The position numbers and the translations under genes were made by a program. Of a DNA stretch of 64,000 nucleotides, positions 46,020-49,818 are shown in pieces (position 1 is the first letter of the stretch; each line of letters starts with the position of its first letter). The stretch covers positions 55,182,001-55,246,000 of the forward strand of contig NC_058368.1 in the NCBI RefSeq assembly GCF_018350175.1. Direction: 5' to 3'. This DNA is from Felis catus. Taxonomy: Eukaryota. The notes under the pieces are model-generated. The model saw nothing but the letters and a program-made list of their open reading frames with translations. It had not been told where the DNA came from and searched no databases.

Positions 46020-46261
46020 TTATTTTTTTATTTTAATTTTTTAAATTTTTTGTTTATTTATTTATTTTGAGAGAGAGCTAGAGAGCATGTGTGTGCATGG
46101 GGGAGAGGCAGAGAGAGATGGGCAGGGAGAGAATCCCAAGTAGGCTCTACACTGTGAGTGCAGAGCCCTACGAAGGGCTTGATCTCATGAACCATGCTTG
46201 ATCAAGACCTGATCCAAAATCAAGAGTGGACTCTTAACCAACTGAGTCACATAGGAGACCC
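46020..46261 (-). mobile_element. CAN-SINE (older)
   Basis: Degenerate TSD ACATTC..ATTTTATT. Confidence 0.9.
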
Positions 46262-47903
46262 ACATTCATATTTTATTAAACAAACTGATAGAAAAACATG
46301 AAAATGTTAACCTTGGTGTGTACCCAGAAGACTGTTAAATTTGAAATCCTTAAGCTGGGAGTGTTAGAGTTCCCCTGCACCCTTCCTCTCTCTGGACTGA
46401 GCTGGTTGGCTCACTAGACACTCTGGCCTGTGCATTCTCACTTTGCCCAGAGTACCTTGTAAACTGACAGCAGAGCTACCCTTTCAGACCACCACTCTGC
46501 CTTTTGTTAGCCTCCATGTTTCATCTGAACTTGCCTGGCATTCCTAAACAATCTTCAGATCCTTGTCTAACCTCATCCATCCCTCCTTCTCCAGCTTTTA
46601 ACCCATCCATGACTCCCCATCACCTGGAGATTGAGAAGACCAAACTCTTGCTTCAACCATCAGTCAGCTGGCCCTGGTTCCCTCTTATCCTCTCCCTCTG
46701 TTTGTTCCAGCACCTTCAAGAGTATGGCTCATTTCCTGGACTTTCCCATCTCCATAGTTTTTGAAGTTTCCATTCTCTGGATCACTTTTTCTTTGTGGCC
46801 CTCCCCCTACAGCATCCCAGAGCAGAAGTTTACTTCCCTTATTCCATCCAGGCCTCCTTGATTTTGTGGAGGAGATTAGCACATATGCTGTGTTCTGCCT
46901 GATGTCCAGATACCTGGGAAGGTACTATGGTCCTCAGTTGACTTGGTTGGCTCATCCATCTCCCAGTCTGCTGGCTTCTCCCAATACTGGAAATTAATAC
47001 TGGCACCCAATATTCCTATTTTCCTCAAGGAGGGTAGGGCATGAGCAACCCACCTCTACTCCTAGCCAAGATGCTACTTCCTCCTACCCCTTCTTCCCCA
47101 ACAGCTACACCACCCCACCACCCCCACAGCCCTATGCCCAAATCTCCTGGAAGATCTCACAGAAGTGATTAGAGCAGCTGGTCCATGAGATCCCTCCTTC
47201 CAGAGAGTCTCTTGAGATACAGAAGTGGATAGGGCAGCTCATGTCAAGAAGCAGAGAACTACAAGTCTTATTTTTCTTCTTCCAATTAAGCACTGAAAAT
47301 TTTACCTACACACCTTGTAAATTCATATAATAACTAGCTGACATCTTCATCAGCTCCTCCATCAAAAACTTAGTTCCTACTCTCCTGGGATAAAGGACGT
47401 CAGGGAAACCACTTAGCACTTTGTTCACTCAAACACTCACAAGGAAGGCCAAGCAACGTGATTATCATATTATTTACGTATTTATACAAACAACAAAAGT
47501 ATAACCTAATTACCATAAGAGTCATATTTATTTCAGCAACTCGGTTGAGTATGATTCCCTTCCAAATAAAAGGTTCACTTTATGTATTTGAAGGAAAATT
47601 ATCTTGGGCTTCATATTTCAAAGAATAATTAAGTCTCAAATGTGTATCTTTAATAGTCTAAAGTTAAAGGTGATATGTATTTTCTATTTGGGCATTTATA
47701 GTTAAATGTATGAATTTGAAGGATTTTAAGCAAGATGTCAACATAAGAAACAACAAGCTTTAATTCCCACCCCTCTTTCCTCTTTACAATCTGACAGAAG
47801 TGTTCAAGGGAGAATAAGAATAAAAATAAAATATGGAAGAGGGGTCTTAATCAGTGTCAAAAACAAAAGAATTAGGGCTGTCCGTGGAGGCAGCCTCTCA
47901 GAT

Positions 47904-47913
47904 GGGGCTTTCC
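47904..47913 (+). promoter_or_regulatory. NF-kB consensus motif in the retrocopy leader
   Basis: GGGGCTTTCC fits GGGRNNYYCC; motif only, function unknown. Confidence 0.4.
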
Positions 47914-48325
47914 TATGTCAAGACCAGTAAGAAGAAAGCATCCCTGGTGTCCCAAACAGAGTGCAGGACTGGGACTAGCCAGCTGAGGCGAGGCAGCTAC
48001 ACAGGGACTGCCAGGGTCAGAACCACAATAAATCCACTAACAGAAGAAATATTCTGCTATCAGTCTGGCAACCTGCACTGGGTAACAAATGCCCTACAAC
48101 TGGAGGAAGATCTACTTGTGTTATCAGTGAAGCCCCACGAAGGCCCCATAATTACGAAAGACTACCTACAAAACAAGGAAAAGCACCATGAAGAAATTTG
48201 TTTTTTGACAAGATCAAAACACTGAAACTGTACCAATCCCAGAGATCACAGAGCCCTGCCCCACCTGTGCCTGGGAACTGGCTGCATTTGCCAAAGACCA
48301 TCACACCTCAGCCTTCAGATCTTTG

Positions 48326-48366
48326 AGTGGTCAGGAGTGGACTCAACCAACTGAGCCACACAGGCG
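48326..48366 (-). mobile_element. 41-bp 5' (tRNA-head) fragment of CAN-SINE inside the APOBEC3Z3 retrocopy
   Basis: Reverse complement CGCCTGTGTGGCTCAGTTGGTTGAGTCCACTCCTGA matches the SINE head; removing it restores IF-A-x-x-LY. Confidence 0.8.
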
Positions 48367-49087
48367 CCTTCTGCCTGTACTTCCACTTGCGCTGGAAGTA
48401 TCATCAGGGGCTGAGACATCTGCAAACATCTAGGATCCCAACTGCTGTCATGAGCTGCCTGGAGTTTGGGGACAACCAGCTGGAGGAAGTTTGTGGACAA
48501 CCAGGACAGGAATTTTCAGCCCTGGGATGATAACCTGGAGCAATATAATAACAGCATAAACTGACAACTTTGGAGGACTTCGGAAATATGAAACTTGGAT
48601 GACCATCACCCCCCACACACACCCTCCCACCCCCAGCTAGGAAGCGATTCAAGAGGACTGTTCCTGCAGCATCTCAATGTTTCATAAACTGACTCTTAGG
48701 AAGAAGTTGTAAACTCCATAGGCACACTTGGCCCTTGCCTGAATCCAGAAAACCTTTCTTTCCTTCTTCATTCTTTTGTTTTCTAAGTGTGCATATATTT
48801 TTATATTAGAAGAAACAAAAATAATTTTTAAGTCTGTAAAAAAGAATTAAGATAAAGCAAATTGTTCAAAATTCATATATGTAAATTTTTCAGATATATG
48901 ACCACTGATTGCAAATTGAGGGGAATGCCTAGGTATTAATTCCCACCCTACAGATGGCATGAACGTTGTGAGTTGTTGCATGAACTAGGAAAAGGAAATT
49001 GTGATGAATCTCAGAGCATCACATAAACTGTAGGGTGGGGAGAGTCAAAGCTGATAACTGGTCACAGGGCTGATGACAATTTCTGAC

Positions 49088-49283
49088 TTTTTATGTTTAT
49101 TTATTTTTGAGAGAGAGAGAGAACATGAGTGGGAAGGACCAGAGAGGGGGCAGGGACAGAAGATCTGAAGCAGGCTGTGTGCTGACAGCAGAGAGCCCGA
49201 TGCAGGGCTCAAACCCATGAACCATGAGATCATGACCAGAGCCAAAGTGGGATGCTTAACCATCTGAGGCACCCAGGTGCCCG
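49088..49283 (-). mobile_element. CAN-SINE
   Basis: TSD AATTTCTGA. Confidence 0.93.
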
Positions 49284-49818
49284 GAAAATTTCTGATTTTC
49301 AATAATGGTTTTTAACTTCAAAGACTGTGCCAGCAATGGTGGAAGGTCAAACACTGGTGACACATTCACCCCACAACTCTCTATGGAAGCACACCATCAC
49401 TTCAACATTGGGAAGATTCTGGAATCAGATAAAATTCCTTTATTCTGGGGAGGAAAAACTAGAGGGGAAGAAAAGACCAACAATTTGAAAAAGTGAATAT
49501 TATTCCACCTGAAGACCGTTTGCTCAAGACGTAACAATACTTAGATTTAAAAGCCCTAAAAATACTCGAGAGAATTTTTTCAGCAGTGAAATTTAAGTGT
49601 CTGCAAATGTGGTTATGAAAATTAGAATGAAGGAATCACTCACTAGCACAGCTGGAGAAAAAGCAACCACTGCTCTCCTTTTCAATGTTTAAAAACTATA
49701 TGCAACTTCCATGAAATATATTCTGGCAATGACATTTTTTGAGTTTAGTCCTAACAATTCAGAAGCTGATCATACTTCTCCTGGAGCTTCAGAGCAAAAG
49801 AGCAGGATATTTCTAAAA

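Follow-up and report, generated by a model that had tools for sequence, protein, structure and literature searches.

We analysed a stretch of 64,000 nucleotides of the Felis catus genome (hereafter the window). Positions 47875-48843 of the window are a processed pseudogene of the cat A3Z3 (A3H) mRNA, collinear with all five A3Z3 exons and devoid of all four introns at the splice junctions. The copy is located on contig C1 at 55.23 Mb (55,229,865-55,230,849 with its flanking repeats), in gene-poor, AT-rich surroundings (~32% GC). Neither the window's six other ORFs of at least 110 aa nor 12 ORFs at 46400-47330 match a Pfam family. The features of the locus are the following, where C16 is the chromosome-scale contig that carries the parent gene.

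47865..47874, + strand: target-site duplication, 5′ copy (AAAAGAATTA), an exact 10-bp repeat; exon 1 homology starts at the next base
47875..48020, + strand: exon 1-derived part (non-coding, 5′ UTR); its alignment to C16 runs as far as 132530415, with one deletion of 12 nt and one insertion of 1 nt
48021..48177, + strand: exon 2-derived part; aligns to C16:132533249-132533405; ATA start codon at 48028-48030
48178..48462, + strand: exon 3-derived part (Z3 zinc-deaminase core); aligns to C16:132534046-132534313
48325..48365, - strand: 41-nt piece from the 5′ head of a carnivore SINE of the tRNA type; lies antisense within the exon 3 part and is missing in the parent
48463..48575, + strand: exon 4-derived part; aligns from C16:132534545; +4 and +3 insertions
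48576..48843, + strand: exon 5-derived part; aligns to C16:132535446-132535714; TGA stop at 48600-48602, then 3′ UTR
48840..48849, + strand: target-site duplication, 3′ copy (AAAAGAATTA); its first A's overlap the remnant of the A tail

The parent, the antiviral A3Z3 (A3H) gene of the same cat genome, has five exons at ~132.53 Mb of C16 and an intact ORF of 193 aa, with 100% identity over 193 residues to the Felis catus protein A6MJH0. Its introns measure 2833, 640, 231 and 785 bp, and canonical GT/AG sites stand beside each exon; the aligned part of exon 1 ends at C16:132530415, followed by the GT donor. According to RNA reads, the parental 3′ UTR is transcribed. This exon structure agrees with the published layout of cat A3H, given by Munk et al. 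(2008, PMC2397500) as one untranslated and four coding exons spanning 2,237 bp. The A3 cluster on C16 comprises four Z2 exons plus Z3 and is bracketed by two CBX7_C-box genes, with matches at 132.42 and 132.56 Mb.

A blastn comparison of the copy with the parental locus gives five collinear blocks (E 4e-16 to 6e-42). The DNA matches of the copy within its own genome are to A3Z3 only, and to none of the four Z2 exons. A genome search found the window copy to be the sole extra A3Z3-like sequence in this cat. The original prediction, which proposed an mRNA retrocopy, had named three observations that would speak against it: a best match other than APOBEC3 Z3, an alignment that requires introns, and a position in the canonical A3 cluster. 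In each case we observed the reverse. The best matches are A3H in the PDB and A3Z3 as the only relatives in the genome, a single intronless alignment spans all four exon junctions, and the copy is on C1 while the cluster is on C16.

Homology to the parent is confined to the transcript. It runs from 47875, within exon 1, to 48843, and there is no similarity past either end. The UTR-like flanks that had been reported for the unit correspond to the 5′ UTR of exon 1 (72.4% identity over 152 5′-UTR sites) and the 3′ UTR of exon 5. Homology stops at GTCTGTAAAA in copy and parent alike, and the 3′ end of the copy is the parental poly(A) site, ~20 nt past the parental AATAAA, which is AACAAA in the copy (48814-48819). 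The copy is presumably 'full-length' at its 5′ end. Both flanks are single-copy in the genome, and a search of the genome with both flanks for paralogous 'empty sites' found none.

The unit is bounded by the 10-bp A-rich direct repeat that had been predicted. This repeat, AAAAGAATTA, begins with AAAA and is flush with both ends of the homology. A shared word of equal length between two 25-mers at the same spacing is found in 0.08% of pairs sampled from the window (P = 0.0008), and between the flanks after shuffling in 1.2% of cases (P = 0.012). A second direct repeat, at 13 nt the longer of the two, lies ~100 bp beyond either end of the copy, and the retrocopy reading does not account for it.

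The poly(A) tail is nearly gone. Six A's remain at 48838-48843; the parental 3′ end accounts for four of them and the repeat for four, so that almost the whole run is explained, and the tail was either lost or never long. The LINE-1 endonuclease has the nick consensus TT/AAAA. The nick site of the copy reads AC/AAAAG on the top strand; the A-run half fits the consensus, but the TT half does not. The SINE fragment aligns to the head of the SINE, is 92-94% identical to the dispersed copies L003 and L004, and is the only part of the copy where contig depth is in the thousands. LINE-1 is most likely the agent that made the retrocopy. This agency is inferred, whereas the absence of introns, the limits of the copy, the repeat that flanks it, its position away from the parent and its lesions are observed directly.

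Another reverse transcriptase, such as that of an endogenous retrovirus, or the use of cDNA as filler at a chromosome break would account for the missing tail, for the partial match to the endonuclease consensus and for the head-only SINE fragment, which resembles filler or template switching. However, such an origin is improbable: the 10-bp repeat starts with AAAA exactly at the expected tail junction, copying of the mRNA began at its 3′ end, flanking LTRs are absent, the region is AT-rich and gene-poor, and the A tails of copies this old often shrink. A DNA-level (segmental) duplication of A3Z3 with later intron loss, to which the term 'gene duplications' used for the extra carnivore copies by Ito et al. 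(2020, PMC6955324, as accessible) would lend itself, has almost no chance of being correct, because all four introns are gone precisely at splice junctions, the homology runs from exon 1 to the poly(A) site with neither promoter nor downstream DNA copied, a short repeat flanks the copy, and the copy is on a different contig.

We now turn to the encoded domain. Four stop-to-stop frames (47851-48225, 48209-48433, 48327-48530 and 48454-48564) contain successive parts of an APOBEC domain, and their Pfam matches are ordered along the APOBEC3/APOBEC_C profiles, as expected from the prediction of Z3-type deaminase pieces in different frames. For the first frame, all eight of eight PDB matches are A3H chains (best E 0.0012). 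The codon-aligned identity of the copy to cat A3Z3 is 64%, and the read-through contains all the motifs listed in that prediction, i.e., NPLTEEIF, YLCYQ, HHEEICF, PCPTC, LYFH.RWKY.QGLRHL and FVDNQDRNFQPW. The deaminase was also called 'complete'. ATA aligns with the parental ATG and TGA with the parental stop, but ~22 nt of the catalytic core and ~31 nt at the exon 4/5 junction are missing. The copy is far from the intactness that was implied.

The zinc-binding motif of Z3 domains is H-x-E ... P-C-x2-C, with a T-W-S strand ahead of the PC. In the copy, the HxE and PCxxC relics remain as HHEE and PCPTC, but the strand before the PC (FEIICYITWS in the parent) was removed by a 22-nt deletion after 48252. 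The exon 3-derived part has two further 1-nt deletions. Exon 2-derived sequence has a +1 insertion at ~48090 and a -1 deletion at ~48127, and the single in-frame stop is close to the end of the exon 4-derived part. In total there are 17 indels over the whole copy, nine of them in the coding part, and with these, the ATA start and the stop, the copy has no deaminase ORF. A scan of the genome with the Pfam APOBEC3 profile did not report it. Divergence from the parent is much the same at codon positions 1, 2 and 3 (K2P 0.217, 0.227 and 0.275), GC to AT transitions outnumber the reverse by 74 to 34, and eight CpGs remain versus 30 in the parent. We saw no footprint of self-editing in the form of a sense-strand G>A excess (40 G>A versus 34 C>T, p = 0.30). 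The retrocopy is dead and non-coding.

We sampled ~1.9 Gb of each of the RNA runs X24 and X21 and found no copy-specific reads. From X24, an oligo-dT RNA run of which ~2% was read, 33 reads mapped; all are partial and parental, and at their loose ends they agree with the 3′ UTR of the parent rather than with the copy. X21 gave 0 reads on the copy. Two other runs, X18 and X19, have low-depth contigs over flanks and copy alike, which may be DNA. There is no evidence for transcription, and the copy is apparently silent today, although the absence of reads does not prove silence, the sampling being small and the tissue unspecified.

These data bear on two ways in which the copy might still function. 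A working retrogene, i.e., an extra A3Z3 that is transcribed and translated like some A3G retrocopies of New World monkeys, is close to refuted. Gene callers gave ORFs of 91-157 aa over the 5′ part in three assemblies, and after read-through of the frameshifts only one in-frame stop and the zinc-site relics are seen. However, these ORFs begin in flanking DNA, read the 5′ UTR and differ in end point between assemblies. Moreover, the start codon is gone, nine indels break the frame, the strand ahead of PCxxC is lost, a 41-nt SINE piece interrupts the core, the three codon positions are equally diverged, and 33 of 33 RNA reads are parental. It is equally hard to credit that the dead pseudogene gained a non-coding role, for example as an RNA that regulates parental A3Z3. 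Over 34 nt of the 3′ UTR, copy and parent are so alike that parental reads map partly to the copy, but the two raw-read RNA runs have zero copy-specific reads, the decay looks neutral and includes large indels, and the X18 and X19 contigs span flanks and copy equally.

We are highly confident in the reading that a spliced A3Z3 mRNA was retrocopied, most likely by LINE-1, to another chromosome, and that the copy has since decayed and is dead. On this reading, the single-domain A3Z3 (A3H) gene yielded an mRNA that, once spliced and polyadenylated, was reverse-transcribed into an A-rich site on another chromosome, most likely by target-primed reverse transcription with LINE-1 machinery. Since the copy contains the non-coding exon 1, transcription of the mRNA probably began at the native promoter of the gene. 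The host would have been an ancestral early carnivoran or feliform, and the event would have taken place in its germline or early embryo. Having presumably arrived without a promoter, the copy then decayed neutrally, losing its start codon, acquiring frameshifts and the 22-nt deletion in the catalytic core, and gaining the SINE fragment. What is left is an apparently silent, non-coding fossil of an old A3Z3 sequence.

The copy is 78.8% identical to its parent over 891 sites (K2P 0.253, or 0.206 without CpG sites), and is about as far from cat A3Z3 as the panda A3Z3 pseudogene is. Its age would be tens of millions of years, an estimate that depends on general substitution rates and on a fast-evolving parent; cat and hyena A3Z3 have just 68% identity. 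All 14 of 14 DNA runs of the same organism contain all 137 sampled words of the copy, in line with fixation; runs of other species have too few 31-mers in common for such a comparison. Two ORFs from other assemblies, P0041 and P0042, appear to be orthologues: both begin in the same flank and read through the same junction as well as the 22-nt deletion, and their differences from the window's ORF number 3/85 and 11/134 residues, respectively.

Out-of-cluster A3Z3 pseudogenes, described as 'duplicated', have been reported in caniform carnivores (Ito, Gifford and Sato 2020, PNAS 117:610; PMC6955324, accessible in part). In Dataset S3 of that paper, Felis catus, Acinonyx and Panthera pardus have one intact A3Z3 each, and no felid pseudogene is among the 80 of 84 'Pseudo' matches listed, the others being alphabetically later. 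The original prediction did not say whether the copy had been described. In felids it is apparently unlisted, but pseudogenes of this kind from other carnivores are in print. Like the felid copy, the caniform copies have a Z3 parent, lie outside CBX6-CBX7 and are pseudogenized; in contrast to it, they are termed duplications. The comparisons with Dataset S3 below are counts by eye, with a margin of error of a few sites.

The panda, red panda, mustelid and dog entries of Dataset S3 cross the exon 2/3 and/or 3/4 junctions, and the intronless entry length is 319 nt (21 + 268 + 30). By our reading of Dataset S3, the caniform pseudogenes would likewise be intronless. P0002, an ORF of mustelid type, covers the cat mRNA from exon 1 to exon 3. 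The dog-family copy is nearly identical to dog A3Z3 and, because of this, is clearly a separate and younger event than the felid copy.

The relationship of the felid copy to the arctoid copies is less clear. Over 290 sites counted by eye, with an error of a few sites, the felid copy is 15.2% different from the panda pseudogene and 17.2% from cat A3Z3. The felid and arctoid copies share two adjacent changes, TGG/TGA, where functional genes read GAG/AAG, as well as a G>T change (CTTCAG); these similarities seem to point towards one felid/arctoid origin. By contrast, a codon that is AGG in the felid copy and feliform genes but GGG in arctoid copies, together with a feliform-type N in 'NL', would point against it. 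In the Dataset S3 domain sequences and P0002, no indel or stop shared by felid and arctoid copies was found. The frameshifts of the felid copy differ from those of P0002, and the felid copy reads TGG where most arctoid copies have a premature TGA.

A protein maximum-likelihood tree of 20 Z3 domains puts the copy within an unresolved polytomy and has no power here. AU tests reject no grouping of the copy, whether with Felis (p 0.38), feliforms (0.39) or caniforms (0.28). Among polarised amino-acid characters, the copy has 2/3 feliform-derived, 1/4 caniform-derived and 0/2 felid-derived states, numbers too small to decide its placement. Protein word-index searches with pieces of the copy returned the window's own ORF only, and an all-against-all HMMER search returned this ORF and P0002 only; functional A3Z3 relatives were retrieved only with parental exon 3 as the query. 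When metagenomes were scanned with P0002 for contigs of carnivore hosts, a single weak candidate came up, L011 (45% over 29 residues), which was rejected as probably spurious.

It is possible, although we hold the idea only tentatively and lean against it, that the felid copy and the panda, mustelid and pinniped pseudogenes descend from one insertion that predates the cat-dog split and was overlooked in felids through decay. The split dates to roughly 55 million years ago or more, and the copy was perhaps also missed in canids. If true, the locus would be a carnivore counterpart of the primate A3I. It would preserve a dated picture of ancestral carnivoran A3Z3 that has evolved neutrally and includes both UTRs, and reconstructions of the ancestral gene, which is caught in an arms race with lentiviral Vif, could be anchored on it. 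Every extra A3Z3 copy in Carnivora would then be a dead-on-arrival retrocopy, and the support that such copies were taken to give to A3Z3 duplication being genotoxic would fall away.

With this copy, a felid entry joins the short list of APOBEC3 retrocopies. The copy retains ancestral states that the fast-evolving cat gene has lost but that are common to other carnivores (for instance PCPTC, YFH and LQNK), and such fossil states could aid studies of FIV Vif that reconstruct ancestral A3Z3. Most retrocopies lack a promoter on arrival; therefore, the decay of these A3Z3 copies says little about harm from a second A3Z3 gene. The known routes by which such elements originate are unchanged. Taken together with the coordinates of Ito et al. 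(PMC6955324, accessible in part), the felid copy suggests that the sole reported mammalian 'amplification' of A3Z3 arose by retrocopying, in at least two and perhaps three events, instead of by gene duplication.

The copy further indicates that in early carnivorans, A3Z3 mRNA came within reach of the machinery of retrotransposition in the germline or early embryo. That a retrocopy implies germline expression of its parent is a standard argument (Yang, Emerman, Malik and McLaughlin 2020, eLife 9:e58436; PMC7263822, accessible in part). The predicted expression of A3Z3 in germline or early embryo is thus probable for the time of the event, and for that time only.

The same source describes A3I, an ancient simian retrocopy derived from A3G, and the A3G retrocopies of New World monkeys. 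The felid copy resembles these in its distant landing site, in its insertion in an ancestor tens of millions of years ago, in its early breakage and in its state as a 'molecular fossil' of an old restriction factor. However, the primate retrocopies come from a double-domain Z2-Z1 gene and the felid copy from a single-domain Z3 gene, the hosts belong to different mammalian orders, and some of the monkey retrocopies are intact, transcribed and antiviral (PMC7263822), none of which applies to the felid copy. Compared with ordinary LINE-1 processed pseudogenes, the felid copy is likewise intronless, ends at the poly(A) site, has a short target-site duplication in an AT-rich site and was dead on arrival. 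It differs from them in its nearly vanished tail, in the head-only SINE inside it and in that its parent itself inhibits retroelements. The felid A3Z3 retrocopy is real and apparently unlisted, yet an ordinary kind of genomic fossil.

Four overlapping stop-to-stop frames between 47500 and 49300 encode consecutive pieces of an APOBEC deaminase, and map collinearly onto the Pfam APOBEC3 and APOBEC_C profiles. The original prediction assigned them to the Z3 type, correctly: the first frame has eight matches to solved structures, each of them an APOBEC3H chain. We searched the window's own assembly (2.43 Gb, 71 contigs; window at C1:55,182,001-55,246,000) with the coding part as a DNA query, and recovered only the region itself, one A3Z3 exon on contig C16 and two short matches to a SINE piece. 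Protein and 3′-UTR searches likewise found no A3Z3-derived sequence in the genome other than the copy and its parent.

When 40 kb surrounding the C16 match were aligned to the region, window positions 47875-48843 resolved into five blocks, in the order and strand of the parental exons:

Exon 1, C16, ending at 132530415, followed by GTAAGT
Exon 2, C16:132533249-405
Exon 3, C16:132534046-313, 268 nt
Exon 4, C16:132534545-660
Exon 5, C16:132535446 to about 132535714

Every parental exon has AG/GT splice sites, and the window lacks all four introns, as expected of the single intronless alignment that had been predicted. Once spliced, the parent has an intact coding sequence for 193 aa, which match residues 245-437 of A6MJH0, the Felis catus A3Z2-Z3 read-through protein, with 100% identity; the assembly is therefore that of a cat or of a very close relative. 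Its exon structure agrees with that of cat A3H in the accessible text of Munk et al. (2008, PMC2397500), a single-copy gene with one untranslated and four coding exons over 2,237 bp; the word "pseudogene" is absent from that paper. Since exon 1 is present in the copy, the template was a single-domain A3H transcript, not an A3C-A3H read-through RNA.

A genome scan with Pfam APOBEC3 found four Z2-type exons and the Z3 exon inside 36 kb of C16, AID/A1-like and A2-like matches elsewhere, and no match on C1. CBX7_C-box matches at C16:132.42 Mb and C16:132.56 Mb flank this cluster. This places the copy away from the canonical locus, on a different chromosome-scale contig, as had been anticipated. 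The observation was real and its interpretation right: the copy is a processed pseudogene, long dead and of a known kind. Separately, the four A3Z2-type exons upstream of A3Z3 (C16:132498716, 132508263, 132517078 and 132526651) are spaced about 9 kb apart, and three of them have identical scores. Published counts differ, with three cat A3C genes in the accessible part of Munk et al. (2008, PMC2397500) and one Felis catus Z2 entry in that of the table of Ito et al. (2020, PMC6955324), which could reflect copy-number variation or an assembly difference.

The flanking 10-bp direct repeat that had been noted is present. Homology to the parent begins at 47875, one base past AAAAGAATTA, and ends at 48843 within GTCTGTAAAA, where the parent runs on into unrelated DNA; the second AAAAGAATTA occupies 48840-48849. 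An equally long word is common to 25-mers at that spacing in 0.08% of pairs sampled from the window and 1.2% of shuffled flanks. The 3′ end of homology lies about 20 nt past the parental AATAAA, which reads AACAAA in the copy, and next to nothing remains of an A tail. The nick site, AC/AAAA, agrees with the LINE-1 consensus over one half only. Each of the two flanks occurs once in the genome, and GC content around the copy is about 32%.

Other features occur nearby. An exact 13-nt direct repeat, TTAATTCCCACCC, is found at 47760-47772 and 48936-48948, about 100 bp outside each AAAAGAATTA copy of the target-site duplication. By chance, about 0.02 such repeats would be expected per 1.3 kb. The repeat may be the trace of an older, small insertion into which the retrocopy landed, or a coincidence. 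Just upstream of the retrocopy, about 1 kb (46330-47300) is GC-richer and single-copy in the genome, and none of its 12 ORFs contains a Pfam family. Two full-length, antisense tRNA-type carnivore SINEs bracket the region, at about 46040-46265 and about 49075-49290.

The deaminase had been described as complete, which does not hold. The start codon is indeed ATA, and 17 indels affect the copy, nine of them in the coding part (+1, -1, -1, -22, -1, +41, +4, +3 and about -31 nt). The 22-nt deletion removed the strand preceding PCxxC. The 41-nt insertion is a SINE piece:

48325-48365, antisense, 41 nt, 5′ head of a tRNA-type SINE

Target-primed insertion retains the 3′ end. Given that only the 5′ head is present, the piece looks like an insertion followed by a deletion, or filler DNA captured when a break was repaired. 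On its left side, a short AGATC-type similarity suggests possible microhomology.

With an X placed at each break, the read-through of the copy is identical to cat A3Z3 at 109/171 residues (64%) and contains one in-frame stop. K2P distances are about equal across codon positions 1, 2 and 3 (0.217, 0.227 and 0.275), substitutions are predominantly GC to AT, and CpGs number 8 compared with 30 in the parent. Relative to the parent, G>A does not exceed C>T (40 vs 34, p = 0.30), so there is no trace of deaminase editing on the cDNA.

In an oligo-dT RNA run (about 1.9 Gb sampled), all 33 reads touching the region match partially. The overhanging parts carry parental 3′-UTR sequence, and therefore the parent is transcribed, with no RNA of the copy's own seen in this small sample, which includes a single-cell RNA run with no reads on the region. 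Low-depth contigs from two runs whose type is uncertain cover copy and flanks alike.

Copy and parent are 78.8% identical over 891 sites (K2P 0.253; 0.206 without CpG sites). Assuming 1 to 2.2 x 10^-9 neutral substitutions per site per year, they would have separated roughly 50-125 million years ago, an imprecise figure because the parent evolves fast (cat and hyena A3Z3 are 68% identical). Every sampled word was found in 14/14 DNA runs of the same organism. Two ORFs of other assemblies, P0041 and P0042, start in the same flank and span the same junction, with differences at 3/85 and 11/134 residues. P0042 also spans the 22-nt deletion and terminates at the very start of the SINE piece. These lesions, and the insertion itself, are therefore older than the split from those sources. 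The copy retains PCPTC, YFH, LQNK and KPHEGPI, which are common to other carnivores and changed in the cat gene. A protein tree and AU tests gave no placement of the copy.

The arctoid copies are the panda, mustelid and pinniped A3Z3 pseudogenes of Dataset S3 of Ito et al. (2020). In a by-eye count of 290 sites, 44 (15.2%) distinguish the felid copy from the panda pseudogene and 50 (17.2%) distinguish it from cat A3Z3, whereas the panda pseudogene and cat A3Z3 differ from each other at 49 (16.9%). These near-star distances place all three splits close in time, near the base of Carnivora. TGG/TGA for GAG/AAG (two adjacent changes) and one G>T are common to the felid and arctoid copies, unlike all functional genes seen, which points towards a single origin. 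However, codon AGG and an "NL" residue of the felid copy are shared with feliform genes instead, pointing towards separate origins, and the felid and arctoid copies have no indel or stop in common. We regard one pan-carnivoran event as a tentative possibility of somewhat less than even standing. By eye, the arctoid pseudogenes retain ancestral states (KD, H-L-S-L and, in R-I-F, a codon starting with A) at positions for which the functional genes of dog, panda and ferret have derived states in common. This hints that the arctoid copy may predate the dog-arctoid split, although dogs have no such copy in Dataset S3.

Our full-text literature searches turned up no account of an A3 retrocopy in felids or other carnivores. 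Yang et al. (2020, PMC7263822), in its accessible part, covers only primates. The accessible parts of Ito et al. (2020, PMC6955324) report A3Z3 amplification in Carnivora only, with duplication and pseudogenization at least twice; almost all of the additional copies are described as pseudogenes, and some lie away from the canonical locus. Their table lists pseudogenes in panda, red panda, mustelids, pinnipeds and canids, and only one, intact A3Z3 each in Felis catus, Acinonyx and Panthera pardus. No felid occurs among the first 80 of 84 "Pseudo" matches in Dataset S3, the last four being later alphabetically. The 319-nt panda and mustelid entries run unbroken from exon 2 (21 nt) through exon 3 (268 nt) into exon 4 (30 nt), and the ORF P0002, whose sequence equals the translated ferret/mink entry, covers exons 1-3 of the cat mRNA. 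We read these caniform entries as retrocopies as well. By eye, the canid copy hardly differs from dog A3Z3, which marks it as a younger, separate event. The copy described here is of interest as a felid member not previously listed, and because, on our reading of the published entries, it indicates that carnivore A3Z3 "duplications" are retrocopies.
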